From Candidatus Micrarchaeota archaeon (GTDB lineage: Archaea > Iainarchaeota > Iainarchaeia > JAADDC01), in the NCBI GenBank assembly GCA_027046625.1, contig JALTXX010000016.1, forward strand, positions 42,202-106,201: a stretch of DNA of 64,000 nt, read 5' to 3'. The notes under the pieces were generated by a model. It was not told where the DNA came from. It saw nothing but the letters and a program-made list of their open reading frames with translations, and did not search any database. This document shows positions 11,430 to 56,224 of the stretch, one piece after another. Made by a program: the position numbers and the translations under genes. Every line of letters starts with the position of its first letter. Position 1 is the first letter of the stretch.

Positions 11430-11482
11430 AAACTATCCAATGTATGCATCACTTTTTTAACCCACCCATCCCTATTACATTC

Positions 11483-13783
11483 ATGTCCTATTCCATTATT
11501 TCACCCCTCCTCATTATCCTCATCGTAGTAGCCTCCTCCCTCTTCCTCTACAACACCGTCATCTCCTCTCTCCAACCCATCCAGTCCACTCCTTCCTTCG
11601 TTCCACTAATCATCGAAGAATACAAACAGGAGGGCAACCTTCTCACCCTCTACATCAGAAACCCCTCAAACACCTCAGCCTCCCTCCCCTACATCCTCGT
11701 CAAAACAGAAGAAGGGATAACAAAGATTGACCTCAACGCCACCATCCCCCCAAACTCCTCCCAGCCCATCACGGTAGAGCTCCCCTCCACTACATCCCAA
11801 GAGATAGAGGTATCCCTTGGAGGAAGCACCTCCTACCAGGTCCAGATAGAGCCTACAACTTCACTGTCAGCTCTATTCTGCCCTATCCTACCTCCAGACT
11901 GCACAGACCCCAACTCTCCCTGTGCAGGCACCGGCTGTTTAGCCTCGTATCCAAAGATCTTAGGAACTTATACATTTCCTACTAATGTTGCGCACGATAT
12001 GGCTCTTCATCCAGAAAGAAACCTGGCCTTCGTAGTCAACGGATATTCAGGCCTCCTCACCATCAACTACACAAATCCTTCCTCCCCAACATTAGAAGGA
12101 AACTATGACACCCCAGGCTATGCCCAGAGTGTAGCCCTTGATACCCAGAAGAACTTGGCCTTTGTAGCAGATAGATCATCAGGCCTCCTCATAATAAATT
12201 ACGCTATTCCATCTTCTCTTACCTTAGAAGGTAATTACAATACTTCTGGCGACGCTCTAGGAGTAGCCCTCCTCCCAGAAAAGAACCTCGCCTTCGTAGC
12301 CGACGGACTTTCAGGCCTCCTCATCATAAATTATACCAACCCCGCTAACCCTGTATTAGAAGGCAACTACAACACTCCAGGAACAGCTATCTCTGTGGCT
12401 CTCGATCCCGAAAAAAACCTTGCCTTTGTAATCGATGGCAATTTACAAATTGTTGACTACACCAACCCATCATCTCCAACCCTGGTAGGAAGCTATGCCA
12501 CCCCAGATAATGCATTTTCGGCTGCCTTACTTCCCGGGATGAATATAGCTTTTGTGGTGGTTGGTTACTCCGGTATTCTTATTATCGATTACACAGACCC
12601 CACAAACCCCACTTTAATTTCTGAGCATAACACTTTAAGCCCAGCGATTGATGTGGTTCTATCTCCAGAGAGTAACACCGCGTTTGTAGGCACCTACGAC
12701 TCTGTCATTGTTATAGATTATACAGATCCGGCAAATCCTGTAGTAGAGAAGAATTTCTTTATTAGTATAAATTACTCCATAGCCTTTTCTTCAGACAGGA
12801 ACCTTTTATTTACGGGCTCATTCCATCAGATTAACATCATTGATTACTCGCAGCCTGACACTGCCCCATCGCTCCTTACTAACTACCCTATAAGCATAAT
12901 AACAAGGGGTACGGCAGTAGGAGTCATCCTCCTATCAGAGAAAAACCTTGCCTTTGTAGCCGACAGGGACTCAAACTATGTCCTCATCATAAACTACACC
13001 GATCCTACAACCCCTATTTTAGAAGGCAACTACAACACTCCAGGAACAGCTATCTCTGTGGCTCTCGATCCCGAAAAAAACCTCGCCTTTGTAATCGATG
13101 GCAATTTACAAATTGTTGACTACACCAACCCATCATCTCCAACCCTGGTAGGAAGCTATGCCACCCCAGGATATGCCCAGAGTGTAGCCCTTGATACCCA
13201 GAAGAACTTGGCCTTCGTGGCGGATAGTACCGCAGGTCTTCTAATAATCAGCTATACAGATCCTACCAGCCCTACTCTGGTAGGAAGCTATAGCGTACCA
13301 TACTATGCTGCTGGTGTTGCTCTCCTCCCAGAAAAGAACTTGGCCTTCGTAGCCGACGGACCTTCAGGCCTCCTCATCATAAATTATACCAACCCCGCTA
13401 ACCCTGTATTAGAAGGCAACTACAACACTCCAGGATATGCTGAAGACGTAGCCATAGATATAGAAAGAAATCTGGCCTTTGTAGCAGACAATGAAGCAGG
13501 TGTTCAAATAATAGACTATACTATCTCCTCCTCCCCAGTAATAGCAGGATCCTACGACACCCCGGGCTACGTATTCAATGTAGCCCTCCTCCCAGAAAAG
13601 AACTTGGCCTTCGTAGCCGACGGACCTTCAGGCCTCCTCATCATCAACTACACTAACCCATCATCTCCAACCCTAGTAGCAAGATCGTATCCAGCGTCAA
13701 CAGATGTAGCATTGGATGGAAACCTGTTGTTTGTTGCTGGAGGAAACCTTTACGTTCTAAACATCTGCAACTGTTTGACTTAA
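11483..13783 (+). CDS. LVIVD-repeat beta-propeller surface protein with pilin-like N-terminal domain
   Basis: About 14 repeats of NLAFVAD...GLLIINYTNPxxPxLxGxYxTPG; N-terminal IISPLLIILIVVA hydrophobic helix and LTLYIRN strand. Confidence 0.85.
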   Translation: MSYSIISPLLIILIVVASSLFLYNTVISSLQPIQSTPSFVPLIIEEYKQEGNLLTLYIRNPSNTSASLPYILVKTEEGITKIDLNATIPPNSSQPITVELPSTTSQEIEVSLGGSTSYQVQIEPTTSLSALFCPILPPDCTDPNSPCAGTGCLASYPKILGTYTFPTNVAHDMALHPERNLAFVVNGYSGLLTINYTNPSSPTLEGNYDTPGYAQSVALDTQKNLAFVADRSSGLLIINYAIPSSLTLEGNYNTSGDALGVALLPEKNLAFVADGLSGLLIINYTNPANPVLEGNYNTPGTAISVALDPEKNLAFVIDGNLQIVDYTNPSSPTLVGSYATPDNAFSAALLPGMNIAFVVVGYSGILIIDYTDPTNPTLISEHNTLSPAIDVVLSPESNTAFVGTYDSVIVIDYTDPANPVVEKNFFISINYSIAFSSDRNLLFTGSFHQINIIDYSQPDTAPSLLTNYPISIITRGTAVGVILLSEKNLAFVADRDSNYVLIINYTDPTTPILEGNYNTPGTAISVALDPEKNLAFVIDGNLQIVDYTNPSSPTLVGSYATPGYAQSVALDTQKNLAFVADSTAGLLIISYTDPTSPTLVGSYSVPYYAAGVALLPEKNLAFVADGPSGLLIINYTNPANPVLEGNYNTPGYAEDVAIDIERNLAFVADNEAGVQIIDYTISSSPVIAGSYDTPGYVFNVALLPEKNLAFVADGPSGLLIINYTNPSSPTLVARSYPASTDVALDGNLLFVAGGNLYVLNICNCLT
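12270..13435 (+). repeat. direct repeat of about 113 bp: 12270-12382 and 13323-13435, with a partial third copy near 13581-13645
   Basis: tcctcccagaaaagaac...cccgctaaccctgtattagaaggcaactacaacactccagga shared with about three mismatches. Confidence 0.85.
12356..13169 (+). repeat. direct repeat of about 151 bp: 12356-12506 and 13019-13169
   Basis: ttagaaggcaactacaacactccaggaacagct...agctatgccaccccag matches with one mismatch by eye. Confidence 0.9.
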
Positions 13784-14779: not shown

Positions 14780-14863
14780 GCCGGGGTGGCCGAGCGGTCC
14801 AAGGCGCCGGACTCGAGATCCGGTGGGATCACTCCCGCGCGGGTTCAAATCCCGCCCCCGGCG
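14780..14863 (+). tRNA. tRNA-Ser(CGA)
   Basis: GCCGGGG...CCGGA-CTCGAGA-TCCGG, long variable arm, GTTCAAATC, CCCCGGC-G; TATA ctttaaat about 25 nt upstream. Confidence 0.96.
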
Positions 14864-14866
14864 CTG

Positions 14867-14923
14867 TTAAGCTTCCACAGTATCACATACTCTTATCCCC
14901 TTCCCTATAAGACAGATCTTCAT
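14867..14923 (-). pseudogene. 3' remnant of a third pilin/C-type-lectin paralogue
   Basis: Translates MKICLIGKGIRVCDTVEA*, versus the C-termini LKICLIGEGVNVCDTVKV* (16866 gene) and VRVCLVGKGLRVCDTTAT* (15201 gene). Confidence 0.8.
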
Positions 14924-15134
14924 CTCCAACGCTTCGCTCTTTGATTTTTTCCCACTTCAGGGTATTTACTCTACCAGATAGGACCTCTCTTAGGCGCTCC
15001 TCGAGTTCTTTCCCACGGGTTTCTTCCTCTTTCTCAAATAGCAGGTCTACAAAAGTGTTGAATATTTCTTCCAAGTTAGTAATTCGTGTCTCCAGTTACT
15101 CGATCCTCTTCTCTAACGTGGTAGCCTTCTCCAT
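14883..15134 (-). pseudogene. antitoxin-like small protein with internal TAA (15096-15098)
   Basis: MEKATTLEKRIE*LETRITNLEEIFNTFVDLLFEKEEE...ELEERLREVLSGRVNTLKWEKIKE; coiled coil plus acidic stretch like archaeal RelB-type antitoxins; own TATA tttaaat upstream. Confidence 0.5.
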
Positions 15135-15200: not shown

Positions 15201-16067
15201 TCAAGTGGCAGTAGTATCACAAACTCTTAGCCCCTTCCCTACAAGACACACCCTAACATCAATGAACTGAAAACCTGTTTTGGAGGGAATCGCCTGAAGT
15301 GTACAACTTGCACTCCCGCCTGGGGAAACAGGAAGGATAGTATCGCATTTTACAACCGGTATGTAGAGGGACCGTACAGTACCTCCTATGTTTACATCAA
15401 CCCTGATTGGTTCTCCAATCCTCTTTGAGGCAACTGTATAACCAGATAATGTCTCTATCCTAAGCGTTAAACTTCCAAGGATCAAATTCCTTGTAGAAGA
15501 ATGATTAGACACAGTAAACCCAATTCCGATCTTCTCACATATGAAGGGAAGAGGTACGGACCCATTTCTATCATCCCATCCCGTGGATGTTATGACGGCA
15601 ACATCCTCCCCGTTAGCATCATCTGGCTTGCCACCCATCCAAAAATCACCCACTATAGGATCTCCCGTAATGTACTTCCACCCACCATCTGGCTCTGAAG
15701 ATTCAGGGGATTGGTACACCCCTATGTATGCTGCACTCCACCCCTTAGAGCTAACAATATTTTTCAGCACATTGTTTTGACCATCCGTTCTGGGAGTGGC
15801 AAGAAACATACCCCTCTCTTTACAGTAATTAAATGCATCTACCCAGTTCATGGGGGTAGAAACAGGCAGGTAATAGTGCAAATAATAGCTAGCAATTCCT
15901 GGTGGACCTACCTCTTTATAGGCTTCAAGCGACACCCCTATGGGAGAGGTATCCTCAGCTGTAGTCTGCTCAGAAAGTTTTGCCACACCCATGTATATGA
16001 TTATCCCAAGTGCCAGTACTGTAGCTATGAGGAGGAGTGTTGCCACAATGGGTGAGATGCCTCTCAT
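15201..16067 (-). CDS. type IV pilin-like protein (class III signal) with inserted C-type lectin domain
   Basis: MRG/ISPIVATLLLIA prepilin signal; CTL motifs NWxDAxxYC...LAT...YIG...W...KPD...ED...WDD...PFICEK; true start 16067. Confidence 0.85.
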   Translation of the reverse strand: MRGISPIVATLLLIATVLALGIIIYMGVAKLSEQTTAEDTSPIGVSLEAYKEVGPPGIASYYLHYYLPVSTPMNWVDAFNYCKERGMFLATPRTDGQNNVLKNIVSSKGWSAAYIGVYQSPESSEPDGGWKYITGDPIVGDFWMGGKPDDANGEDVAVITSTGWDDRNGSVPLPFICEKIGIGFTVSNHSSTRNLILGSLTLRIETLSGYTVASKRIGEPIRVDVNIGGTVRSLYIPVVKCDTILPVSPGGSASCTLQAIPSKTGFQFIDVRVCLVGKGLRVCDTTAT

Positions 16068-16125
16068 CCTAACGAAAAAAAAACGATGAATAAATACCTT
16101 TCGGCCAGAGGTCGTTATGTATAAT
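16039..16125 (-). promoter_or_regulatory. duplicated promoter/5' unit, copy 1 (BRE-TATA, T9 tract, ATG, TTATNNATAA palindrome)
   Basis: Matches 17719-17805 at an offset of exactly 1680; 16060-16104 is identical over 45 bp. Confidence 0.8.
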
Positions 16126-16159
16126 AACCCCTTATATACATCCCCTCCCATTTAATAGC

Positions 16160-16483
16160 ATGGAACCCCTTTCCACCATTAAGCGAATAATAGAGGAGGA
16201 AGCCTCCCGCCTCAACATAAAAATAGAGAGGATTATCCTCTTTGGAAGCAGAGCAAAGGGAACAGAGAGAAAGGATAGTGACTATGACATTCTAGTAATT
16301 ACTCAGCATCCTGTAAGCAGACACCTTATGTATAAATTCCACTCTAACATTAGAATAAGGTTGTACAAACTTCTGGGGAGAGAGGTGGATATTATCGTTG
16401 TAGATAGGGACTGGTTTAAGCGGAGGAGTAGATTATGGGGAAGCGTGGAATACGCAGCGGCAAGGGAAGGAATGGTGGTGTGA
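16160..16483 (+). CDS. minimal nucleotidyltransferase (MNT) antitoxin
   Basis: ILFGSRAKG...SDYDILVI...VDIIV. Confidence 0.92.
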   Translation: MEPLSTIKRIIEEEASRLNIKIERIILFGSRAKGTERKDSDYDILVITQHPVSRHLMYKFHSNIRIRLYKLLGREVDIIVVDRDWFKRRSRLWGSVEYAAAREGMVV

Positions 16484-16863
16484 GTATTGTATGTGAGTGG
16501 TTGGAAAGAGCTAATAGAGACCTGAAAGCGTCTAAGTTACTCCTAGAGGAAGGATTATACGAGGAGTCAACCTTTCATTCCCAACAGGCTGTAGAAAAAG
16601 CCCTGAAGGCACTCCTTTTGGCTGTAAGGATCTTACCGCCAAGGACCCATAGCATAGAGCGGTTGTTGAGTATGCTAGAGGAGAAGATTGATGTTTCTTG
16701 GGCGTATGAGATGCACTTGCCAGCACTAACCTACTATGCCATAGAGGTGAGATACCCGTCCCCTCCTGTATCTGAGGAGGAGGCAATAGATATGCTAGAT
16801 ATAGCAAGAAAAGCGATTGAAAGGGTGAAACTAATCTTGAAAGAGAAGAAAATACAATGCTAG
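16480..16863 (+). CDS. HEPN-domain toxin of an MNT-HEPN module
   Basis: FHSQQAVEKALKA, PPRTHSI, RYP; GTGA overlap with the MNT stop. Confidence 0.92.
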   Translation: MSIVCEWLERANRDLKASKLLLEEGLYEESTFHSQQAVEKALKALLLAVRILPPRTHSIERLLSMLEEKIDVSWAYEMHLPALTYYAIEVRYPSPPVSEEEAIDMLDIARKAIERVKLILKEKKIQC

Positions 16864-16865
16864 AT

Positions 16866-17747
16866 CTATACCTTCACCGTATCACACACATTTACCCCTT
16901 CTCCAATAAGGCAAATCTTCAACTTGGATACCTCATAATCTACCTCCTTTAGAGGAAACGCCCAGAGAGAGCACGAGGCACTTACATTGGGTGGCACATC
17001 CCATCTATCACATTTTAGGCGGGGAACGCTAACCCCTCCTACTCTTGTATTATTTATGTCCACAGAAAACCAGCTGAGGGAGTCTGTCTTCACCGCTGCT
17101 AGCAGTCTATTGTTTAGTGCGTCATACACATGAACACTTACATTGGTGAGATTCAGAATGCCTTCAGAGGATACATTGGTAACCGTGAATCCAATCATAA
17201 TCTTTTCACACACAAAGGGAAATAACTCCGCTCCGCTATAGTCATGAAGACCATCTGACCTTATAGCCGCCACATCTTCAGCTGTGTTATCATCTGGCTG
17301 CCCACTTGCCCAGAATCCTTCCCCTATCAATCCCATTGCATCCCCCGTAACATAGTACCATCCCTTGTCTGGCTCAGAAGACCCAGGACTCTGGAATACA
17401 CCCACCCATGCGGCTGTCCACCCCTTGGCTGCAAGGATATGCTTTATCTTATCGAGCTGCAGAAGGGACTTTGGAGCTGCAAGAAACATCCCCCTCTCCT
17501 TACAATAGTTAAACGCTCCTATCCAGTTCATTCCCGTAGAAACAGGCACATAGTACCTGAAGTAGCCAATGGATGCCCCTCGTGGTGGATAATCTAGGTA
17601 TGCCTCCATCACAACAGAGTATATCTGCCCCTGCTGGCCAGAGGTACCCTCCACCATCTGAGAAACACCCATATAGAGCAATGCTCCAATAGCAACAACG
17701 ATAGCAATCAACAGCACCGTTGCCACGATGGGTGAGATACCTCTCAT
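16866..17747 (-). CDS. type IV pilin-like protein (class III signal) with inserted C-type lectin domain
   Basis: MRG/ISPIVATVLLIAIVVA; CTL NWxxAxxYC...WVG...W...QPD...ED...PFVCEK. Confidence 0.85.
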   Translation of the reverse strand: MRGISPIVATVLLIAIVVAIGALLYMGVSQMVEGTSGQQGQIYSVVMEAYLDYPPRGASIGYFRYYVPVSTGMNWIGAFNYCKERGMFLAAPKSLLQLDKIKHILAAKGWTAAWVGVFQSPGSSEPDKGWYYVTGDAMGLIGEGFWASGQPDDNTAEDVAAIRSDGLHDYSGAELFPFVCEKIMIGFTVTNVSSEGILNLTNVSVHVYDALNNRLLAAVKTDSLSWFSVDINNTRVGGVSVPRLKCDRWDVPPNVSASCSLWAFPLKEVDYEVSKLKICLIGEGVNVCDTVKV

Positions 17748-17805
17748 CCTAACGAAAAAAAAACGATGAATAAATACCTTTCGGTTGGGAATTGTTATGT
17801 ATAAT
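17719..17805 (-). promoter_or_regulatory. duplicated promoter/5' unit, copy 2
   Basis: Second copy of 16039-16125. Confidence 0.8.
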
Positions 17806-45895: not shown

Positions 45896-48800
45896 TTAAA
45901 TAGCTCCTTGAGGACTCTCAACTGTGATCTCTCTTTCGGCTTTTAAAGTATTTCCTTTGTCATCTATTATGGTGCATTGAATTTTATATATACCTGGCTC
46001 TTTTGGAGTGAATGTTATATTTGGAGGTGTATTAAAGCTCTTGCTTGTGAGCAGCAATTCACATACACCATCTTCACGGTATGTTCCTTCCGCCTCTTTA
46101 CAGGTTTGTAAGTCTAAAAGTTCTATCTTACGAATTTCAATAGTACCGTTTGTTACAGGAGCGCCGTACTCGCAAGATATACTAACTTTATCTCCAACGT
46201 ATATGCCATCTCTTTTGGATAGTCTTATTTTGGGTTTGCTTAAGGTCTGTTGTGTACCAGACTGTTCAATCTGGGTTCTTTCAGCAATGTTTGTAATTTC
46301 GCCCCCTTGAGCAGACGGTTCTTGTGCCGCCACAACGTTTATGGTTGCTGAAATGGTTTTGCCATCCCATGAGCATTTGGCAGTATATGTGCCAGCAGAG
46401 CTGAAGCTATAGCTAAGGCTGCTTGCTCCCTCTGTTGATGTAATACTTTGATTGTTCTGTAGTATTTCTATGTTTTTGGCTCCCACACACTTAATTTCTA
46501 TTGCTGTACCTGCCTTTGTCTGTACCTCGTACTCATCCGAGGCGGTGAGAACCTGCTCCTGTCCATCCCAGGAAAGTTTCATCGTGGGTTCAGCCACCCC
46601 TGGTGAAACTTCCTGAACGGGGGCAAGGAATAGATACCTCCTCCCCTTTTCTGAGTAATCCTTTATCTTATCATATAGAACACCCCACCATCTTTCTATG
46701 GCTGTACACGTGACATCAGGGACGAGGTTTCCAGCGTTATTTGGTGTATAATCCAGACACAAGCGTGGCTTGTCCGGAAGTGTTATAATGGCTGTTTTAC
46801 CGTCTCCAGCTATTTCTATCTTGTTATCTTTACACGTAACAGATATACCTGTATCAGTCTCAAATCGCTGGCTGCCATTATTGCACACATCGTCATAGGC
46901 AGGGAAAAGGTAATCTGATTGAGACAATGTGGCGTTGTTCTTGATGTGATCATAGGCTGTGGCTACTATATCGTACACCTGATTACCAAATGTTTTGTAC
47001 CCCTTTATCCTGAGCGATTCTCCCCTCTTTTCAAAGGCGCTTAAATCCAAAAAGTATCCATCCGCCGGATTTGCTGTAACAGCTAAGGTGTTATCCCCAA
47101 CCTTAAGTGATATTTGTTTGTTGTTTGTAGGACAGTAAATCTCCAAGCCTATTAGCTTGTCAACCTCAACTGTAAACGCTTTATCCATGATTTTATCTTC
47201 CCACTTTACAACACATTCGTTGGGATTGATTCCAACATTCCCAAACTTCAAAATGTAGTGTTTGTCGTTTCTGCTAATGTGAAAGACCACCTTTTCCCTT
47301 AGACTGTTTAGTACATCGTCGATGTTTGGTTCTCCCTTGCAGATATTTGTAAGCACCACCTTAGGATCTGATATGTACACTCCTTGCAACGCACTTATCT
47401 TAACAGCCTTTTCTGTATCTGGTTCTACCCTCTCTATACAAACCTTGAGGAGCTTCTCCTTCTCTAGAGGAGCCTCCGCAAGTGTTATATTAAATGTTTT
47501 GAGTTGTATCATCAAATCCTTGCTTATATCAACGTCTGTCATATAAAGTTCGATTTTACCCTCTTCTGGGATTATTTCAATCCTATTATCCAACTTGGCT
47601 CCTGGAACCTCTATCATAATTGGTAGATCTAGTATGTATGTGGGAGAAATACTTAGTACCACTTTTAGTTTGTCTTCCTTTGCCTCTATACTGTCTGTTT
47701 TTATGCTGATATTTGGAGAGGATATCTTCACCCTTTTGCTCGTCTCAAAGAGGGTGGTAGACCCGTACTTTACCCTAACTGTTACATCGATGGACTGGGT
47801 CTTTATAGAGCCTTCCTCTGCTACAGGAACAAACCTATATATGCTGCAACCATCCTTTTCGCCCATTTCTTTTATCATCTCAACCCTTATATCACCAGCA
47901 TCAGGAATTACTTCTACTGATAGCTTAGGAGGTACGCAAACATTAAGCTGGTTTGTATTGGTGGTTATTTCCACCGCGTCCTTCACATTGTACTTTCTGT
48001 AGGTTCTTTCCCATCCTTTGTAGAATGGCGCCTCTACAGAGATTTTGAGGGAGGAGCAACCCCTTAAATCCAAGGAAAAGTTAACCTTTCTGCCTTCCTT
48101 CTCCTCATTTGCGCACCCAGATACCTTTACAATAGGTGTGATACCTTCTTCTACCCCCTTTACCTCAATGTTAACCGTTGTGTCTCCAGTAGGCAAAAAC
48201 CTGCCCTCAATGTTGGGGTTAATGTCTACAACAGGGGAAAGTGTTTTTAGATCCGCAACTACACCGAAGGATCCAACGTCAAGGGTATCCCAACGCTTAT
48301 CTTTTTCTCCTTTCACCTTTAGGAGGAATGCAACCTCATCTCCCTCTTCAATGATGCTCCTTAGCTTCTTTATGAGAGAAGCACTGCTTATTATATTGCC
48401 TTTATTTATTCTTCCACTCATTAACTCTACACTGCCTTTGCCTCCTTGGGCAATGAGCTTGAACTCTCCAGCTGCGGGGGCAAATCCTTCTTTCCTAAGG
48501 AGGAGGGCTAGATCAACCTTGTACCTTTCTATATCCCAGATATCTATTACATCAACTGTCTCATCTTTGTAGAACAACCCAAAAGAATAGCATATTCTTC
48601 CATCTTCTGTGCATTTGAGCTCCTCCCCCACTGGGAATAGGTATCTTTTATCGCCAACGGACAAAGATACAAAGAAGGCATCCTCCTTTACGCGGAATTT
48701 TATGTACATCGTCTTCACGGCTGGTCCATCTTTGAGAGAAAATGCAACCCCATCCTCTGATACCTCCCCGCTTGGGAAGGACGATATCGCCTTTGCATTC

Positions 48801-50653
48801 TCTAAACCAATGAAAAATTGTGCCTCTTTCTCATACCCTACCCTTATTACTGCCCAGTATTCCTCTCCCTCTTTTAAGGAACCTACAGGAGATCCATCCT
48901 TTTTGATCTCTACCAGCTCTATTCCTTCCTTAAATTCTAGCTCCAAGGTAATGTCTTCCGCACCATTTGGAGGGACTGTTACAGCCTCAAAGTAATACTT
49001 TTTACCTTCGTACTCCACTATTGGTATTATTTCCACATTCCCAGGTACCTCCACAGCAGTAGGACCAAGGAAGGAGGACTCTCCCTCCCATATCACCTTA
49101 CCTCTATACAGTATGGACACCTTTGCCTCTACCGGGATGTTATCCCTTGTTACAGTTATGTTTAGTGTGCCTTTGTTGGGAACAAAGGTAACAGTGATCT
49201 CTTTCTCTTTCTTTTCCCCTACCTCTATTACGTTTTCGTATAGTACCGATCCCTTATACTCCACAACTACATCATACTCCCCCACGGGAACAGATTTTAT
49301 TATAGCTATGCCATCAGCGTTCGTTTTTGCCTCTAAGCCAAGATACTGCTCTCCCTTTGTAAGATAAACAATAGCATTTCTTATGGGTGTGCCATCAAAC
49401 AGCCTCACTGCAACCTTTACATCCCCACTTTTAACCACCTTCTTCAAGGTAACGGTTTTATCTCCCTCCGCAACACAGAACTCCACCTTTTTGGGAGTGT
49501 ACTCCTCCTTTGTAATGTTGAGAACCCCGCATCCTGTGAGGGAAAGGGTGAAGGTTGCAACCCCATCCTCTGTACTTTTTGAAAGCTTCACGCTATCCAG
49601 CTCAAGTCTCACGTTGGCTCCACTAAGAGGGTTTCCTTCCTCATCCTTCACATAAACCTTAAAACTGTATTCTATGGTAGGGATCTCCACCGATATATTC
49701 CACTCGTTGCTATTCTTTTTTACTTCAAAGATGGAACCATCTTTTACTTCCACGGCAGAAAGCTTGCCCTCCCAGAATATTTCCGCAGAGAATACCTTAT
49801 ACTTTCCTGGAGGAAGTCTTATCTTTTTTATACCACCATTTACTACCACTTTTATGCCGTTTCCAGGAGAAGACACAAGTCCGATGGTTACTATACCATT
49901 GAGCAATTCTCCCTCTCCAGTATAAAGTCTTATGGTAACAGGAATCTCCTCTGCCTCAACTCCCTTTAGAGAGGAGGACGGCTTTTCAAATCTAAGCACC
50001 ACAGAGGAGGGTAACTTCTCAAAGGAGTAGGAAGCAACCTTATTTCCAAGGGTTTTGTGCATCGCCTTAAAGGTTATCCTATCTCCCTTACCAGCTTTTA
50101 TACACTCCTCCTTTGTGGGGGAGAAACAAAGATTGAAGGAGCTTCCATCCTGGGAGAATACCTCATTTCCATTTACTAGTACCTTTAAGGTTGCCTTGAT
50201 AGGTGTTCCGGCGCTTAGATCCCTTATTAGCACCTCTACGGTCTTTTCCTCAGGTTTTAGAACAATGGCGAACCCACCATCCACCTCATCTAACCTAACG
50301 GCCTTGTACCCCTCCAACTCCACCTTTAGTATTCTTGCCTCTTCAGGAAGCGTCACTCTGCCATCCTCTGCAAGGAACTCCAGCCTTTCTCCGTCCACCT
50401 CTGCGATGACCCTTACGTTGGAGAGTGGCTTGCCTTCTGTGTCTACAAAACTATATACTACATACTTTGGTGCAAAGAATGCCTGAAATATGCCAGCTGA
50501 AATCAAAAGAACAAGTATACCACTTACCAGATAAAAGGTGTTTATCCCTCTTGCCTCTAGTGGTCCAATAATTTTGTCCATAGGGATGCCAAGCTCTACC
50601 AGCCTATCGAGAAACCCGTAATACATATCTTCAAGCCTTTCTAATATACTCAT
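45896..50653 (-). CDS. giant membrane-anchored surface protein with carboxypeptidase-regulatory/Ig-like repeats
   Basis: N-terminal cytoplasmic helix plus TM; repeats such as VKDEEGNPLSGANV and DGTPIRNAIVYL; C-terminal PKD-like units; start ATG 50653. Confidence 0.8.
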   Translation of the reverse strand: MSILERLEDMYYGFLDRLVELGIPMDKIIGPLEARGINTFYLVSGILVLLISAGIFQAFFAPKYVVYSFVDTEGKPLSNVRVIAEVDGERLEFLAEDGRVTLPEEARILKVELEGYKAVRLDEVDGGFAIVLKPEEKTVEVLIRDLSAGTPIKATLKVLVNGNEVFSQDGSSFNLCFSPTKEECIKAGKGDRITFKAMHKTLGNKVASYSFEKLPSSVVLRFEKPSSSLKGVEAEEIPVTIRLYTGEGELLNGIVTIGLVSSPGNGIKVVVNGGIKKIRLPPGKYKVFSAEIFWEGKLSAVEVKDGSIFEVKKNSNEWNISVEIPTIEYSFKVYVKDEEGNPLSGANVRLELDSVKLSKSTEDGVATFTLSLTGCGVLNITKEEYTPKKVEFCVAEGDKTVTLKKVVKSGDVKVAVRLFDGTPIRNAIVYLTKGEQYLGLEAKTNADGIAIIKSVPVGEYDVVVEYKGSVLYENVIEVGEKKEKEITVTFVPNKGTLNITVTRDNIPVEAKVSILYRGKVIWEGESSFLGPTAVEVPGNVEIIPIVEYEGKKYYFEAVTVPPNGAEDITLELEFKEGIELVEIKKDGSPVGSLKEGEEYWAVIRVGYEKEAQFFIGLENAKAISSFPSGEVSEDGVAFSLKDGPAVKTMYIKFRVKEDAFFVSLSVGDKRYLFPVGEELKCTEDGRICYSFGLFYKDETVDVIDIWDIERYKVDLALLLRKEGFAPAAGEFKLIAQGGKGSVELMSGRINKGNIISSASLIKKLRSIIEEGDEVAFLLKVKGEKDKRWDTLDVGSFGVVADLKTLSPVVDINPNIEGRFLPTGDTTVNIEVKGVEEGITPIVKVSGCANEEKEGRKVNFSLDLRGCSSLKISVEAPFYKGWERTYRKYNVKDAVEITTNTNQLNVCVPPKLSVEVIPDAGDIRVEMIKEMGEKDGCSIYRFVPVAEEGSIKTQSIDVTVRVKYGSTTLFETSKRVKISSPNISIKTDSIEAKEDKLKVVLSISPTYILDLPIMIEVPGAKLDNRIEIIPEEGKIELYMTDVDISKDLMIQLKTFNITLAEAPLEKEKLLKVCIERVEPDTEKAVKISALQGVYISDPKVVLTNICKGEPNIDDVLNSLREKVVFHISRNDKHYILKFGNVGINPNECVVKWEDKIMDKAFTVEVDKLIGLEIYCPTNNKQISLKVGDNTLAVTANPADGYFLDLSAFEKRGESLRIKGYKTFGNQVYDIVATAYDHIKNNATLSQSDYLFPAYDDVCNNGSQRFETDTGISVTCKDNKIEIAGDGKTAIITLPDKPRLCLDYTPNNAGNLVPDVTCTAIERWWGVLYDKIKDYSEKGRRYLFLAPVQEVSPGVAEPTMKLSWDGQEQVLTASDEYEVQTKAGTAIEIKCVGAKNIEILQNNQSITSTEGASSLSYSFSSAGTYTAKCSWDGKTISATINVVAAQEPSAQGGEITNIAERTQIEQSGTQQTLSKPKIRLSKRDGIYVGDKVSISCEYGAPVTNGTIEIRKIELLDLQTCKEAEGTYREDGVCELLLTSKSFNTPPNITFTPKEPGIYKIQCTIIDDKGNTLKAEREITVESPQGAI

Positions 50654-50688
50654 CCGAATAAATATGTTGCCAGAATATAAAATACTTG

Positions 50689-50740
50689 CGATGATGAATG
50701 ATCGGGCAGACCGATGGATGAGGAGAGGAGGTGGCTGAGC
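50689..50740 (+). ncRNA. C/D-box guide sRNA
   Basis: C ATGATGA (50691), guide, D' CCGA, C' TGGATGA, guide, D CTGA (50735). Confidence 0.7.
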
Positions 50741-51762
50741 TGATAACCATTGTTGGAGGTGCATTTGGAGCCTATCTTGGAAAGATGCTTTCCTCTGAGG
50801 GAGAAAAAGTGATTCTCTATGAAAAGCAAAGGAATAGACATGTTATATGTGGAGGACTGGTTAATAGAAAAAGTATCAGAAGATTTGGGCTAAAGAATTA
50901 CGTTATAAACTGGGTAGACGGTGCGATAGTAACTGCAGGAGAAGAGGAGCTTGAGATAAACAAGAAACGTGTTGCAGGAGTGTTAGATAGGGATGCTATG
51001 TTTAGGGGAATCCTAGAGGAGGCGGAGGCAGCAGGGGTATCGGTTATGTATAAAACATGGAGAGGGGAGAGAGGTGGGGTGTTGGTAGGAGCAGATGGTG
51101 CCGCCTCCTCCTTGAGGAAAGAGGTTACAGATAGGAGGGTAAACTACATTCTTGCTGTTCAGGCAAGAACGGAGTATGACAGTGATAAGGTTAGGGTGGA
51201 CTTTGGCCCCTGGAGCCCTTCTTTCTTTGGGTGGATTATCCCTCTTGGGGATGGAACCTCCCATATAGGGGTTGGCATCCCTCCTTCCGAAGGAAGAGGA
51301 TGGAAAAAATACCTGAACATGTATGCGTCTTTTCTTCAGCTCTCATACTGGAACCCCGAGGCAAGGATCATCCCCATTTCCCCACCCCTTTGGACAGTCA
51401 AGAGGAGGAATGTATATCTCCTCGGAGACGCCGCAGTTCAAACAAAGGCCACAACGGGGGGAGGAATAACCTATGGATTGAGTGCAGCCCACCTTTTAGC
51501 ACGAGATATACTCAATGGGGAAGACTACAACATCCTTCACAGGAGATATATCTATCCTCGCCTTCTCCTACACTGGTTCATACATAAGATCCTCTATTCC
51601 CTCCCTCTACCTCTTCTTTTGAGATGGATAAAGGAAAACTACCTAAGTGTTCTATCCACTGCTGACATGGACGACCCCTTCACCATAATGCATCCAAAAC
51701 TCCTCACATTCATCCCCCAAACCTTCTTTCACGCCTTGAATACTCTTCTAAGACCTTCCTAA
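50731..51762 (+). CDS. geranylgeranyl reductase-family FAD oxidoreductase
   Basis: CGGL, VGADGA.S, FFGWIIP, LLGDAA..TKATTGGGI. Confidence 0.85.
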   Translation: MAELITIVGGAFGAYLGKMLSSEGEKVILYEKQRNRHVICGGLVNRKSIRRFGLKNYVINWVDGAIVTAGEEELEINKKRVAGVLDRDAMFRGILEEAEAAGVSVMYKTWRGERGGVLVGADGAASSLRKEVTDRRVNYILAVQARTEYDSDKVRVDFGPWSPSFFGWIIPLGDGTSHIGVGIPPSEGRGWKKYLNMYASFLQLSYWNPEARIIPISPPLWTVKRRNVYLLGDAAVQTKATTGGGITYGLSAAHLLARDILNGEDYNILHRRYIYPRLLLHWFIHKILYSLPLPLLLRWIKENYLSVLSTADMDDPFTIMHPKLLTFIPQTFFHALNTLLRPS

Positions 51763-52366
51763 AATCATCTATTTCCATTTCTGGCCATAATTTTGGATAG
51801 AAAATGAGCTCTGCGTATGATGCCTGTAGAGGGATAAACCCACTCAACCTCATCTCACCCGAGGTTCTGAGTATAAGGTCAGGATCGGGAAACTCAGGCA
51901 GGTAAAACCCCCTCCTAAACTCCTCATAGTTGTTTCCCTTGAACATTTTAGCCGCTCTTACAACCTCTTCTGTGGGAGAATACCCTACAAGAAGCCCCAC
52001 AACAGGTTCATTACCTTCTGTAACTTCTTCCACCTTCCCCATAAGGGATTGTATATCCCTTGGAAGAAGATCCAATCTTCCTCCAAACCGTATAGCTACA
52101 TCTTCTCCCCTTTCTACAACTTTCCTCAGTTCCCTTCTTAGGAGCCCAAAGAGCAGGTTTAGCTCTGCTTTGCTTCTGTTTTTCAGGTTTTCTAGGGAAA
52201 GTGTATAGAAGTAAACGTATTTTATGTTTGTTTCCTCCTTTAGGAATCTTATTGCCAGCTTAGCCTTTTCCACACCCTTAGAATAAGCCTCTGCCAAACT
52301 TATACCAACCTTCTTGGCGTACCTCCTATTTCCATCTGGTATAATACCTACACAGAGGGGTTCCAC
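51710..52366 (-). CDS. uppS: cis-prenyltransferase (undecaprenyl-diphosphate synthase family)
   Basis: IPDGNRRYA, LSLENL, DLILRTSGEMRLSGF, RERRFGG. Confidence 0.95.
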   Translation of the reverse strand: MEPLCVGIIPDGNRRYAKKVGISLAEAYSKGVEKAKLAIRFLKEETNIKYVYFYTLSLENLKNRSKAELNLLFGLLRRELRKVVERGEDVAIRFGGRLDLLPRDIQSLMGKVEEVTEGNEPVVGLLVGYSPTEEVVRAAKMFKGNNYEEFRRGFYLPEFPDPDLILRTSGEMRLSGFIPLQASYAELIFYPKLWPEMEIDDFRKVLEEYSRRERRFGG

Positions 52367-52420
52367 GTTTCTCCTATTATGGGAAATGCCTATAAAGAAG
52401 GACCGCCATTATACCTCACG

Positions 52421-54217
52421 ATGGGCATAAGAAAATTGAAGCGCGCATTAAGGAAGGTGCGCCACATACTATACGAAGAGGAGCTGCCAGCCCCTCCAAG
52501 GGTTTCTCCCCCTCCAGCTATGGAAGAAGAGGAGCTGGAAGATACTATCCCGCCAGAAATAGAGGAGCCAACCCCTACTGTTCCCTCTGTAGAGGATAAT
52601 GAAGATATGGATGAGGATGTTTCCTCTCTCTTGGTAGAGGAGATAGTGCCTACCCTTGAAAATGTAAAGGATGTGGTGACTGAAATAGTATCCCTTCCTG
52701 AAGACCTTCCTACGGAGATGAGTGTGGAGTGGAAACCTCCATCCTTTTCCAACGTAAATGAAGTGTACCCTCTCATTCCTCCCCATGCAAAGGCCCATAT
52801 ATTCTGGTCGGAGCAGGACAAGAAACTTCTCTACCATGTGGAAGAGCCAGTCTTAACCCTCAGGGAAAGGGAGGATCTGGAGCGCATCAAATCCCTCCTT
52901 ACAGATTTGGTGGATATTGGTGTATTTGAGGTAAAGGATTCAACCAAGCTGGAAATGTACATCTCAAAGAAGTTTGATGAGGTTGTAAGAGATTATGGTT
53001 TTTCTTTCTCTACCTTGCAGTATGAAAAAATAAAGTATTACGTGCTTAGAGACTTTGTGGGTCTTGAAAGGATAGAACCTCTTATGAGAGATCCAAACTT
53101 GGAGGATATTTCCTGCATCGGTCCTGGAGTCCCAATCTATGTATATCATCGAAAGTACGGCTCTTTACAGACCAATGTGATGTTTAAGACTAACGAGGAA
53201 CTTAACAGATTCATTGTAAAGCTTGCCCAACTCGTGGGGAAGCATGTCTCTGTTAGCAAGCCCCTTCTCCAAGGAGCTCTACCTGATGGCAGCAGGGTAC
53301 AGGCTACCTACGTAGTTACAGGAGATATTTCTACCAAGGGATCCAACTTTACTATAAGAAAGTTCACAAAAGATCCGCTAACTGTTACCGATCTTGTACA
53401 AAATGGTACCCTCACACCTCTCCTTGCAGCATACCTGTGGATAGCGGTTGAATACCGATCTTCCATGCTAGTAGCGGGAGGAACTGCCACTGGAAAAACA
53501 ACTATGCTAAATGTTATCTCCATGTTTATCCCACCTGAGGCAAAGGTAGTTTCTATAGAAGATACACCAGAGCTTAGACTACCCCATGAAAACTGGGTAC
53601 AAAAAATTGCAAGAGAGGATAGAGAGGAAGGTACAGTGGATCTGTTCGATCTACTTAAGGCGGCCCTCAGAGAGAGGCCAGAATACATTATAGTGGGTGA
53701 GGTGAGAGGAAGAGAGACCTACGTTCTATTCCAAGGTATGGCCACTGGACACCCGGGTTTTGCTACTATCCACGCTGAGAATATGAAAACTCTAGTGGAT
53801 AGGCTAATATCACCTCCTATTTCTCTTCCACCATCCCTTCTTCACTCTCTCGATCTAGTGATCTTTATGAGAAGGGCCAACGTGTCTGGCCACGAAGTTA
53901 GGAGGATAAGCTCCATAGAGGAGATAATAGGTATTGATTTAGAGAAAAAAGAGCCTAAGACCAATACATTTGTAGAGTGGGTGCCTGCCCAGGATAGATA
54001 TATTATGCCATCCAAAAAAAGCAAGGTTATAGACAAGATTATTCGAGAAAGAGGTGTTAGCGCGGAGAGTGTGTGGAGTGAGCTCAAGAGACGCTCCTTC
54101 GTGATAGAATACCTAATAAAAAACAACATAAGGTACTATAGGGATGTGCAGCGGTACATTACCCGATACTATAAGGAGCCTGACAAGTTGTTGGAGGAGA
54201 TAGGCTATGGTGCTTAA
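52421..54217 (+). CDS. type II/IV secretion (pilus assembly) ATPase
   Basis: GGTATGKTT, SIEDTPEL, LRERPEYIIVGEVRG, TGH. Confidence 0.93.
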   Translation: MGIRKLKRALRKVRHILYEEELPAPPRVSPPPAMEEEELEDTIPPEIEEPTPTVPSVEDNEDMDEDVSSLLVEEIVPTLENVKDVVTEIVSLPEDLPTEMSVEWKPPSFSNVNEVYPLIPPHAKAHIFWSEQDKKLLYHVEEPVLTLREREDLERIKSLLTDLVDIGVFEVKDSTKLEMYISKKFDEVVRDYGFSFSTLQYEKIKYYVLRDFVGLERIEPLMRDPNLEDISCIGPGVPIYVYHRKYGSLQTNVMFKTNEELNRFIVKLAQLVGKHVSVSKPLLQGALPDGSRVQATYVVTGDISTKGSNFTIRKFTKDPLTVTDLVQNGTLTPLLAAYLWIAVEYRSSMLVAGGTATGKTTMLNVISMFIPPEAKVVSIEDTPELRLPHENWVQKIAREDREEGTVDLFDLLKAALRERPEYIIVGEVRGRETYVLFQGMATGHPGFATIHAENMKTLVDRLISPPISLPPSLLHSLDLVIFMRRANVSGHEVRRISSIEEIIGIDLEKKEPKTNTFVEWVPAQDRYIMPSKKSKVIDKIIRERGVSAESVWSELKRRSFVIEYLIKNNIRYYRDVQRYITRYYKEPDKLLEEIGYGA

Positions 54218-55088
54218 ACCTTTGGCACGTTTTGCCTATAGAATATTTGGTAGATTCGTCTACAAACACAAGGATCTCTTTCTCCCTCTACAAGAGGATC
54301 TAAAAAAGGCAAGACTTCCCTATTCGCTAGATGAATATGTTTCCCTCATTATATTAGTGGCTCTACTCTCCTTTCTTATCTTCCTCCTAATAGGGTGGAT
54401 ACTCTTTCATCCCTTACCCTTCCCCATGAACATCATTACTGCCCTCTTCGGAGCAATAGGGACATCTGCTATCCTTTCCATTATTCTCTATAATCATCCC
54501 AAGATGGCAGCTATAAGCAGAGCCTCCGAGATAGATGCGGTTCTTCCCTTTGCTGTGATGCATATGTCTACCCTTGCAGGTTCGGGAATTCCTCCTCACC
54601 ATCTCTTCCGTATTATGGGGTTGATAGAAAAGTATGGGGAGGTAGCACGAGAGTGTAACATTATTTACAGGGATGTTTCCATACTGGGAAAGGATATATT
54701 TACAGCCCTATCAGATGCTGCCAAGGAATCCCCTTCCCGACTATGGGCGGAGCTTCTATGGGGCATTACTTCTACTCTTCGCTCGGGTGGCTCCCTGAGA
54801 GAGTACCTTTTTATGCGTGCCAAAGACCTTAGAACTATGATAGAGAGAAAAGAAAGGGAGCTCATGGAGACTATGAACCTACTTACAGAGATATACCTTA
54901 TTATCTTTGTGATGGGTCCTATTTTGGTGGCCATTGTGCTTGCATTGTTAAGTATGATGGGCGGCACCTTTAACATTGGAATTGACCCTGTCCAAGGATT
55001 TGCTCTCCTTACCTACCTTATACTTCCTGTTACGGGTGTGATATTCCTCCTTATTGCAGAAATGATGAAGCCGAGGGAGGTAGTATGA
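54207..55088 (+). CDS. type II secretion F-family (TadC/FlaJ-like) pilus platform protein
   Basis: LPFAVMHM..LAGSG, SPS..W.ELL.G....LRSGG. Confidence 0.88.
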   Translation: MVLKPLARFAYRIFGRFVYKHKDLFLPLQEDLKKARLPYSLDEYVSLIILVALLSFLIFLLIGWILFHPLPFPMNIITALFGAIGTSAILSIILYNHPKMAAISRASEIDAVLPFAVMHMSTLAGSGIPPHHLFRIMGLIEKYGEVARECNIIYRDVSILGKDIFTALSDAAKESPSRLWAELLWGITSTLRSGGSLREYLFMRAKDLRTMIERKERELMETMNLLTEIYLIIFVMGPILVAIVLALLSMMGGTFNIGIDPVQGFALLTYLILPVTGVIFLLIAEMMKPREVV

Positions 55089-56224
55089 AGCTGAAGCTCT
55101 TTGGTAGGGTAAGAGAAATACCTGATATACTTATAATACTGTTATTTGACCTTATTTTGGCTATTGTACTTTTCTGGATACTAAACACATTCTACATCGA
55201 TACGCCTTACTACCAAAACTTCCTTGTTTTATCTATATTCACCGTTCTGCTTCTACCCTTTGTATACTTCTATCTAAACTATCGCCGCATAAGGGAGAAG
55301 GAGAAGTACTTCCCCCAATTCCTAAAAGACCTTGCAGATGCTCACAGAACCGGTCTCAGTTTAGTTAGAGCGGTTTACCATATTTCCAGCCATCACTACG
55401 GCCCTCTTACACCTCATGTAAAGAGGCTTGCCATACAAATGTCCTGGGGTGTTCCGTTTGAGGACGCATTCCGCAAATTTGCAAAGGAAACAGGCAGTCC
55501 CATGATAGAGTCCGCCACCCTCATCATATTAGAGGCCTTCTCCTCGGGAGGGAAAACAGCGGATGTGCTTGAAACTGTTGCAGAAGATTTTAGAATACTT
55601 TCTGACATAAAGGAAGAGAGGAAGAGCAAGTTTTCGCCCTTTGTGGGAACCATGTATGTAGTTATCCTTATCTCCCTGGGAATGAGCTATATTCTACTTA
55701 ACATACTACTCCCTGACATGTCCATCCTTCCCACCTTTTCCCTCAACCTCTCTCCTACTCAGGCTGCCCCTGCTGGTGTCACTACTATACCAGAAACCAC
55801 TTTGAAAGTACTCTTCCTTCACATGATGCTCATAGAAGCAGTTATAAGCGGTATGCTTGCTGGTATCTTGGGAGAGGGAAGCTGGAGTGCCGGTATAAAA
55901 CACGTTCTAATCATGGCTTTTATTGTTATAATAGTGTTCCAGCTAGTGATCATCCCCATAAATCCGGTAGAAAGGATTCAGCGAGCGTTGGAAAAGATGC
56001 CATCCTCCGTAAATGTAACTATAGATCTTGGAAGAATATACTTGGAACAATCCATTCCAAGGGACGCCTTTGATGTAAACCTCTCTATAAATTTTGTGAA
56101 GTCTCCCGGTTGTTGTGAAGGTATAGAGGTGAATGAGGATGGTATTTTTGTAAAACAGCCGGAATATGTAAACTTAAAGGTGGTAAGTGATGGAAAGGGA
56201 TCGGCCACCATCTACGTGGGATAG
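55085..56224 (+). CDS. type II secretion F-family pilus platform protein with C-terminal extracellular domain
   Basis: FPQFLKDLA...GLSL, SWGVPFE, SGG...VL, AGIKH. Confidence 0.88.
   Translation: MKLKLFGRVREIPDILIILLFDLILAIVLFWILNTFYIDTPYYQNFLVLSIFTVLLLPFVYFYLNYRRIREKEKYFPQFLKDLADAHRTGLSLVRAVYHISSHHYGPLTPHVKRLAIQMSWGVPFEDAFRKFAKETGSPMIESATLIILEAFSSGGKTADVLETVAEDFRILSDIKEERKSKFSPFVGTMYVVILISLGMSYILLNILLPDMSILPTFSLNLSPTQAAPAGVTTIPETTLKVLFLHMMLIEAVISGMLAGILGEGSWSAGIKHVLIMAFIVIIVFQLVIIPINPVERIQRALEKMPSSVNVTIDLGRIYLEQSIPRDAFDVNLSINFVKSPGCCEGIEVNEDGIFVKQPEYVNLKVVSDGKGSATIYVG

Follow-up and report, generated by a model that had tools for sequence, protein, structure and literature searches.

Archaeal type IV pilin-like proteins with C-type lectin domains form a promoter-sharing gene family in a 652-kb Candidatus Micrarchaeota genome

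Architecture of two lectin-pilin genes

The window analysed here, a 64-kb stretch (64,000 nucleotides) of the genome of a Candidatus Micrarchaeota archaeon, carries between positions 15201 and 17747 two minus-strand open reading frames (ORFs), referred to hereafter as gene A and gene B, each of which encodes a protein that we term a lectin-pilin. Gene A occupies 15201..16067 (minus strand; 288 amino acids plus stop), with the start codon of its MRG leader at 16067. The ORF itself extends further, to 16151 (15201..16151, minus strand), and because the T-tracts in this region differ in length by non-multiples of three among related copies elsewhere in the genome, the part upstream of 16067 was assigned to a non-coding promoter block. 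Gene B occupies 16866..17747 (minus strand; 293 amino acids plus stop) and its product is 47% identical to that of A over 291 residues (E 4e-89). Both genes display the order of parts put forward in an original prediction made from the sequence alone: a class III signal, a strand, a lectin domain and a pilin-type beta-sandwich. An AlphaFold2 model built with a family alignment of 11 sequences (predicted local distance difference test (pLDDT) 79.2, predicted template modelling score (pTM) 0.71) has the corresponding layout: residues 6-33 form a helix and residues 45-51 a strand modelled with confidence, followed by an alpha/beta domain (59-183) and an all-beta domain (185-292). In the two sequences the lectin domain is bounded by ...LEAY/...MEAY (residues 43-50) on one side and by IGFTVxN (residues 182-188 in A and 185-191 in B) on the other.

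The class III signal MRG/ISPIVAT and the hydrophobic N-terminal helix lie within residues 1-33 of both proteins (A, 15969..16067; B, 17649..17747; both minus strand), where MRGISPIVAT is followed by about 25 hydrophobic residues; the motif is identical in A, in B and in plain pilins. The NCBIfam model TIGR02537 (archaellin/type IV pilin N-terminal domain; cut-off 20) matched B at 28.5 bits, and A, which shares the MRGISPIVAT motif, scored 17.6 bits, under the cut-off. When a profile of the family was compared using hhalign with plain pilins of 139-165 amino acids from related genomes, residues 1-34 were aligned (probability 97%, E 9.9e-11) and no alignment was obtained outside them. The presence of class III signals in both genes, as originally claimed, was therefore confirmed. 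The genome encodes two Peptidase_A24 (prepilin peptidase) matches, seven T2SSE-type ATPases and eight T2SSF-type matches over the respective cut-offs, together with one plain pilin of 145 amino acids. Within the window, an ArlI-like ATPase and a split ArlJ-like platform are found at 52379-56224; the score of the ATPase with the FlaI model is 430 bits, short of the cut-off of 550.

The inserted segment is a C-type lectin domain (CTLD), located at about residues 58-179 of A (15531..15896, minus strand) and at residues 59-183 of B (17199..17573, minus strand). Pfam Lectin_C (PF00059; cut-off 22.6) matched A at 44.3 bits (E 3.4e-11) and B at 29.6 bits (E 1.3e-6). Searching the PDB with the AlphaFold2 model using Foldseek returned 360 matches at E<=1e-3 (best E 2.8e-6, template modelling (TM) score up to 0.80), led by the carbohydrate-recognition domains (CRDs) of collectin-11, CD23, langerin and DC-SIGN, and the structure search VIA placed codakine at Z 18.5 (root-mean-square deviation 1.7 over 124 residues) and collectin-11 at Z 17.9. 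Together, the model and the two structure searches bear out the predicted CTLD fold. Comparison of the family profile with PDB sequences likewise gave collectin-11 (E 4.4e-12), as well as DC-SIGN, SP-D and MBP, with alignments spanning EPN...E...WND; in this profile alignment, EPN...E...WND of collectin-11 is aligned to QPD...E...LHD/WDD of the lectin-pilin family. Judging from the aligned copies, the C1-C4 cysteines appear to be retained, as Cys82 and Cys177 (A) or Cys180 (B) are invariant and stand at canonical CTLD positions.

The two ligand-site motifs that had been reported, KPD...WDD in A and QPD...LHD in B, could be read directly from the translations at residues 146-169. In A these comprise GKPDD (15618-15632, residues 146-150), GEDVA (15597-15611) and GWDD (15570-15581, residues 163-166), and in B they comprise GQPDD (17289-17303, residues 149-153), AEDVA (17268-17282) and GLHD (17241-17252, residues 166-169), all on the minus strand. 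In C-type lectins, the complete set of Ca2+ site-2 ligands consists of E/Q-P-N/D, a Glu and the Asn-Asp of WND; the equivalent residues are KPD, E and WDD in A and QPD, E and LHD in B. QPD had been taken as a sign of galactose-type specificity, a reading that is unsafe for both proteins since the partner WND motif of B is LHD and A has KPD.

Downstream of the CTLD is a four-cysteine beta-sandwich resembling the head of archaeal pilins and archaellins. In B it spans residues 184-293 (16869..17198, minus strand), and in A, by homology to the modelled B domain, residues 180-288 (15204..15530, minus strand). The C-terminal 110 residues of B folded alone by AlphaFold2 gave a pLDDT of 89.1, and when this model was compared with 48,161 chains using VIA, nine of the 14 chains at Z>=5 were archaeal type IV filament proteins or FlaF/FlaG: the FlaG/FlaF complex (Z 8.2), FlaF (6.7), a Pyrobaculum type IV pilus (6.5), five archaellins (5.5-6.3) and Iho670 (5.2). 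Searches for the head with blastp gave weak scattered matches only, and a search of the ESM Atlas yielded leads only (best score 0.86, with an archaeal-flagellin cluster at rank 13 at 0.76).

The VIA targets align from about residue 63-81, past the first strand or strands that follow the helix in those filament subunits, which leaves room for a first head strand before the lectin insertion. In B, a strand of this kind is modelled at residues 45-51 (...VVMEAY; 17595..17615, minus strand), with a mean pLDDT of 89 over residues 41-50. The N- and C-termini of CTLDs are adjacent to one another, and taken with the VIA ranges this makes the simplest topology a helix, a first head strand, a looped-out CTLD and then the rest of the head. 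The model thus suggests that the lectin domain is nested inside a pilin-type head, with strand 45-51 probably pairing with the C-terminal sandwich. An ORF of more than 564 amino acids in a genome of the same genus, G004 (locus L043, G004:C14), begins with the N-terminus and head of a plain pilin, continues through a Gly-rich linker into a unit of strand, CTLD and Cys-sandwich, and ends with an extra C-terminal domain; since the unit here stands behind a complete plain pilin head and the Gly-rich linker, the strand travels with the CTLD and the sandwich, which supports the nested topology.

A gene family behind one promoter

The genome (652,019 bp in 18 contigs, estimated to be 94% complete) was scanned with the family profile, which revealed 12 full-length copies on eight contigs and an N-terminal fragment at the end of a ninth contig; counts of 13 copies below include this fragment, and several contigs end inside copies. 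Collectively, the lectin-pilin copies make up about 1.6% of the genome. A six-frame scan placed Lectin_C at exactly the positions of the 12 full copies, ten of which pass the cut-off (one only when summed with neighbouring matches in frame), while the other two fall just below it at 20.9 and 20.1 bits. The same domain was found in 0 of 14 control genomes and in 4 of 215 genomes of the phylum. A relic consisting of the last ~20 codons of another copy (...KICLIGKGIRVCDTVE; profile positions 262-287, E 8.6e-6) lies at 14873..14950 (minus strand), beside a tRNA-Ser gene (14780-14864, plus strand).

Pairwise identity among the 12 copies ranges from 33 to 82%, and each full-length copy has exactly six Cys. 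Variation is greatest in the C-terminal sandwich and the linker, and the N-terminal 28 residues are nearly invariant. Across all domains of the three closest pairs, dN/dS lies between 0.03 and 0.42 (0.11-0.16 in the CTLD), showing that the copies are genes maintained under purifying selection. The proposal that paralogues carry alternative sugar-site motifs was strengthened by the full set, in which seven kinds of tripeptide occupy the EPN position (QPD in three copies, KPD, QPS and EPT in two each, and QPE, EPS and EPN in one each) and the WND position is filled by LHD (4), WND (3), WDD (2), VHD, LDD or WVD (1 each). A full canonical set (QPD, Glu, WND) occurs in one of the 12 (C9:9192), and all of them conserve the tripeptide Pro, the WND Asp and the intervening Glu/Gln.

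Full-length relatives elsewhere are few, namely five in G004, two of which have no recognisable xPx motif, and a handful of database proteins. Among these relatives, canonical sets are present in P0019 (QPD/E/WND), whose N-terminus is like that of the G004 copies, and in P0022 (EPN/E/WND). In a maximum-likelihood tree, a 100/99 branch separates the 12 copies from the G004 copies, P0019 and P0022, so that either the expansion is lineage-specific or the copies evolve in concert. A phmmer search of a protein library returned 274 proteins at E<=1e-3, and among the 150 listed a class III-like N-terminus occurs in family members only. Scanning genome contigs with N-terminal patterns alone gave four loci, matching residues 1-41 only, and of 13 matches to the pattern FNYCKERG in metagenome contigs, none was confirmed as family. 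Lectin_C is found in other architectures in two genomes of the same order and family as this archaeon: a protein of 1029 aa that contains several CTLDs, of which one carries EPN and WND (L039, G015:C49), and a 203-aa transmembrane-anchored CTLD in which the motifs are QPD...WSD and WSD is flanked on both sides by Cys, at the places of C2 and C3 in canonical CTLDs (L042, G011:C60).

All 13 copies are preceded by a near-identical block of 57 nt, composed of TTATACATAAC, nine variable bases, CCGAAAGGTATTTATTCATCG, a T-tract, CGTTAGG and the start codon, which was not found at any other place in the genome and is far more conserved than coding synonymous sites (mean pS ~0.75). For A, this family-specific promoter block lies at 16068..16124 (minus strand), with the TATA-like TATTTATT at 16089-16096 and a T9 tract at 16075-16083; for B, it lies at 17748..17804 (minus strand), with TATTTATT at 17769-17776 and a T9 tract at 17755-17763, and occupies nearly the entire gap between B and the KaiC-like gene upstream. 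In a set of 357 long ORFs from the genome, TATA-like hexamers peak 27-32 nt ahead of the ATG, indicating that leaderless transcripts are the norm in this genome, and the TATA-like box of the lectin-pilins sits at the modal distance for leaderless genes. A tract of T6 to T9 is found between this box and the start codon in 13 of 13 copies, and the distance from TATTTATT to the start codon varies with it: 29 nt with T9 (five copies, including A and B), 28 nt with T8 (five), 27 nt with T7 (two) and 25 nt with T6 (one). Only 11 A/T runs of at least 8 nt exist in the whole genome, and ten of these are lectin-pilin T-tracts.

The copies in G004 have a 5' end unlike that in this genome, with (AG)6-7 inside a conserved leader-coding stretch (...RERE..VNNFS-RG/VSPIV) at loci L011 (C4), L026 (C2), L049 and L067 (C85) and L066 (C70). 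One G004 copy, with (AG)6 in the DNA, has no in-frame start codon; P0160, from another assembly and identical over all 284 shared residues, is in frame with an upstream start, and its leader needs (AG)8 (known from the protein). Family size with seven tripeptides, the 57-nt block with its T-tracts and the (AG)n tracts in a genome of the same genus all go beyond the original prediction.

Occurring as they do at the 5' ends of one surface-protein family in two species, these repeat tracts of different type may, from their sequence, be contingency loci. We raise as a tentative possibility that the 13 glycan-binding pilin variants behind one leaderless promoter are contingency loci switched by repeat slippage in a probably partner-dependent archaeon. 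Slippage between T6 and T9 would then set the TATA-to-start distance in this genome, and the switch of the sister species would be the (AG)n tract inside the leader-coding stretch. Phase-variable families such as Opa and Vlp are known from bacteria. If the proposal is true, the genes would provide a stochastic repertoire of adhesins for changing partners or for evading partner defences, an archaeal counterpart of Opa/Vlp, and no simple-repeat phase variation would have been described in Archaea before. In the part available, a 2025 review presents the distribution of phase-variable loci in Archaea as future work (PMC11868660).

Contigs of two DNA runs were also mapped to the window. They showed a 1-nt deletion at 17755, in the T-tract of B, at a depth of 59/457; the unitigs are fragmented and paralogues cross-map, and the deletion was rejected as a sign of phase variation because it is best explained by cross-mapping of T8 paralogue promoters. 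No RNA data set was recorded as containing the window, and the sequencing run with 85% of the sampled words is labelled hydrothermal vent metagenome and may be the source sample.

The copies sit among ordinary archaeal genes (tRNAs, KaiC-like, ScpA/B), on contigs with a G+C content of 43-48%. Genes A and B are separated by a toxin-antitoxin-like pair on the plus strand, consisting of a nucleotidyltransferase (16160-16483; Pfam NTP_transf_2, 48.4 bits) and a HEPN protein (16435-16863; Pfam HEPN, 106.7 bits); such pairs adjoin lectin-pilin copies at three loci, including C9:10098-10836 and C2:93-506. By NCBIfam, the KaiC-like gene that lies upstream of B is not ArlH, its score of 30 bits falling short of the 215-bit cut-off. 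Directly upstream of two other copies are the paralogous genes C2:1441-2394 and C4:30531-31304 (39% identity), for which no Pfam family was matched. Elsewhere in the window, a 779-aa LVIVD-repeat protein (11444-13783, plus strand; 172 bits) has a pilin-like hydrophobic N-terminus, and that N-terminal region shares 84% identity across 120 residues with another large protein, at C11:37553-38902. At 45896-56224, a 1622-aa Ig-like/CarboxypepD_reg surface protein adjoins the ArlI-like ATPase and the split ArlJ-like platform.

Candidate adhesins and rival explanations

We consider it somewhat probable that A and B are members of a lineage-specific family of type IV pilin-like adhesins whose lectin heads bind glycans on the surface of a partner cell. 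This reading is based on the architecture of the proteins, the anatomy of the family and the very small size of the genome, as well as on published analogies (UpsA, PilC, Saccharibacteria and DPANN lectins, discussed below); a 652-kb, 94%-complete genome fits a partner-dependent lifestyle. The three-residue leader MRG would be cut off by one of the two A24 prepilin peptidases, after which the hydrophobic N-terminal helix would enter a type IV filament or hold the protein in the membrane. The CTLD, looped out after the first head strand, would have its long-loop face directed away from the filament core, where it would bind carbohydrate on partner-cell surface glycoproteins; S-layer glycans may be the ligand, and binding may depend on Ca2+. 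With differences precisely at the primary sugar/Ca2+ site, the paralogues would represent a repertoire of specificities for attachment to a partner, with all copies driven as leaderless mRNA by one dedicated, near-identical promoter.

Several observations weigh against this proposal. Canonical CTLDs have a C2-C3 cysteine pair that is lacking throughout the family, both positions being non-Cys in 12 of 12 copies; when aligned with collectin-11, the family has no counterpart of the Cys before VEMV, which falls in a target insertion, and has a Gly opposite the Cys after WND. Ca2+ site 2 is incomplete in A, where Lys replaces Glu/Gln, and in B, where His replaces Asn. Since these two features are missing, classical Ca2+-dependent sugar binding by A and B is uncertain, and of the "canonical" CTL domain originally proposed, the HMM (hidden Markov model) match and the fold hold, while the C2-C3 pair and the complete Ca2+/sugar ligand set do not. 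For the pilin-type head, the VIA Z scores are middling (5-8), Foldseek with the C-terminal model returned nothing at E<=1e-3, and hhalign found no significant similarity between the C-terminal domain and the heads of plain pilins (E 0.014, probability 3%). The prediction of a Lectin_C fold nested in a pilin sandwich is thus upheld for the CTLD fold and, with VIA matches up to Z 8.2, in part for the head, for which the expected Foldseek matches did not appear. In addition, the lectin-pilin genes are dispersed and unlinked to pilus assembly operons, the closest ATPase and platform in the window being ~35 kb away, and class III signals are also described on non-filament surface proteins, for example the sugar-binding proteins of the Sulfolobus bindosome (PMC3047682).

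These last two points would be explained if the lectin-pilins were not pilus subunits but surface receptors with class III signals, anchored by the helix or arranged in a bindosome-like structure, whose lectin heads scavenge or sense free or polymeric sugars without any role in cell-cell adhesion. The separate plain 145-aa pilin could then be the real filament subunit; the window's platform genes score against BasF, and its ATPase scores 224 bits against the bindosome BasE model (far below the cut-off). We nevertheless regard such receptors as fairly unlikely, as the best structural matches of the head are filament subunits and FlaF/FlaG rather than solute-binding proteins, the N-terminal 28 residues have stayed almost invariant at overall identities of 33-82%, as for helix packing in one filament core, and no ABC transporter was seen beside any copy in the ORF lists inspected. 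A different possibility is that the CTLD is structural or a scaffold for a non-carbohydrate ligand (a partner protein, a lipid or a mineral surface), with the motifs reflecting a lost ancestral Ca2+/sugar function. The full canonical ligand set is indeed restricted to one of the 12 copies, with KPD in A, LHD in B and no recognisable xPx in two G004 copies, and many of the solved CTLDs that were matched bind no sugar, such as NK receptors, CLEC-2, ovocleidin and the Ca2+-independent SPL-2. However, the conservation of the tripeptide Pro, the WND Asp and the intervening Glu/Gln in all 12 copies, the persistence of canonical EPN/WND and QPD/WND in P0022, P0019 and the 1029-aa protein of G015, and the CTLD dN/dS of 0.11-0.16 together indicate that the ligand site is maintained rather than decaying, and we judge a purely non-sugar function unlikely.

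Two further explanations bear on the origin of the diversity. Variable proteins with a CLec fold have been reported in DPANN archaea as targets of diversity-generating retroelements (DGRs) (PMC7443923, PMC6349945), and the diversity of the lectin-pilins is concentrated at the ligand site, as mutagenic retrohoming might leave it. We rejected this hypothesis, which is highly improbable, because the 94%-complete genome contains no RVT_1 (reverse transcriptase) match; moreover, the paralogues diverge from end to end, their synonymous sites being saturated, and the domain here is canonical Lectin_C, whereas the Nanohalobium DGR proteins, as described in the part of that report available, are members of the CLec fold's formylglycine-generating-enzyme subclass (PMC7443923). 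Finally, the rarity of Lectin_C in prokaryotes, mirrored in the control genomes and the phylum, could point to eukaryotic or bacterial contamination or mis-binned CTLD genes. This is almost certainly not the case: the copies lie on eight contigs, with the fragment on a ninth, at a G+C content of 43-48% and amid ordinary archaeal genes, and they combine an archaeal prepilin N-terminus with an archaeal TATA-type promoter at modal spacing.

Relation to known systems and biological meaning

Lectin-bearing modular pilins are already known in bacteria, and the family described here is an archaeal one with C-type lectin domains. The "modular" minor type IV pilin PilC of Streptococcus sanguinis, for which glycan binding is shown and a role in adhesion proposed (PMC9934059), resembles the lectin-pilins in combining a class III signal with a pilin moiety that bears a grafted carbohydrate-binding module and an Ig-like module. 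As presented in the available part of that study, it differs in being bacterial and in having a ConA-like lectin appended C-terminally and a single gene within the pil operon, whereas the lectin-pilins are archaeal, have a CTLD placed behind the first strand of the pilin head and are encoded by 13 dispersed copies. An ultrasmall episymbiont of the Saccharibacteria uses type IV pili with the lectin-like minor pilins PilX1 and PilX2, and its host binding is affected by sugar competition (PMC11623550); these pilins are likewise bacterial, with L-type and PLL-type folds recognised by structural similarity only, and two genes and no large family are described in the accessible text. Among archaea, the Sulfolobus type IV pilin UpsA is proposed to recognise species-specific N-glycans of the partner S-layer (PMC7064770). 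Like the lectin-pilins, UpsA is an archaeal type IV pilin in which a variable region sets specificity; unlike them, in the account available, it has no lectin domain, its proposed pocket being a short variable loop in a plain head, and it is encoded by one gene per genome and serves DNA exchange within the species.

Lectin-like surface proteins are also reported from cultivated small-genome DPANN archaea, where strain-specific Nanobdella MJ1_0179 (bioRxiv 10.1101/2023.10.27.564410) and Nanohalobium LamG/ConA proteins (PMC7443923) are proposed to act in host recognition; in the parts of these sources available, they are ConA/LamG-like, not pilins, are secreted or carry a transmembrane helix, and have no reported C-type lectin HMM match. 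The lectin-pilin CTLD shares with the animal CRDs (collectin-11 4yli, DC-SIGN, langerin, codakine 2vuz) its Pfam family, the fold (Z up to 18.5), a WIGL-like core, the C1-C4 cysteines and the place of the EPN/QPD-E-WND ligand loop. It differs from them in having no C2-C3 disulfide, in its altered ligand residues in most copies, and in being embedded in a prokaryotic pilin, whereas animal CRDs are borne on a coiled-coil neck or a type II membrane stalk. The archaeal filament subunits and FlaF/FlaG (5tug, 4p94, 8fk7, 9eq7, 5tfy, 8qx4, 5ya6, 7txi, 5kyh) have the same beta-sandwich after a hydrophobic helix (Z 5.2-8.2), but none contains an inserted lectin domain, and sequence similarity to the lectin-pilins is undetectable past the N-terminus. 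In agreement with the original prediction, which knew of no described archaeal lectin-pilin of this kind, full-text literature searches found no archaeal pilin with a C-type lectin domain; mentions of C-type lectins in the accessible parts of DPANN papers concern DGR variable proteins with the formylglycine-generating-enzyme-type CLec fold (PMC7443923, PMC6349945).

For the way in which ultrasmall partner-dependent archaea locate the right cell and keep hold of it, the previous candidates, ConA/LamG-like proteins and archaellum-like filaments, are presented in the sources available without defined ligands. Lectin-pilins offer concrete candidates for the recognition of, and adhesion to, a partner by a reduced cell, and they are compact: proteins of 29-33 kDa that combine a recognisable sugar-binding domain with a filament subunit and come with natural variants at the ligand site. 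The C-type lectin domain, best known from animal immunity, here appears to be nested in an archaeal pilin head, and through expansion the family now takes up about 1.6% of a genome of 652 kb. It would also extend phase variation to Archaea, provided that its repeat tracts are switches.

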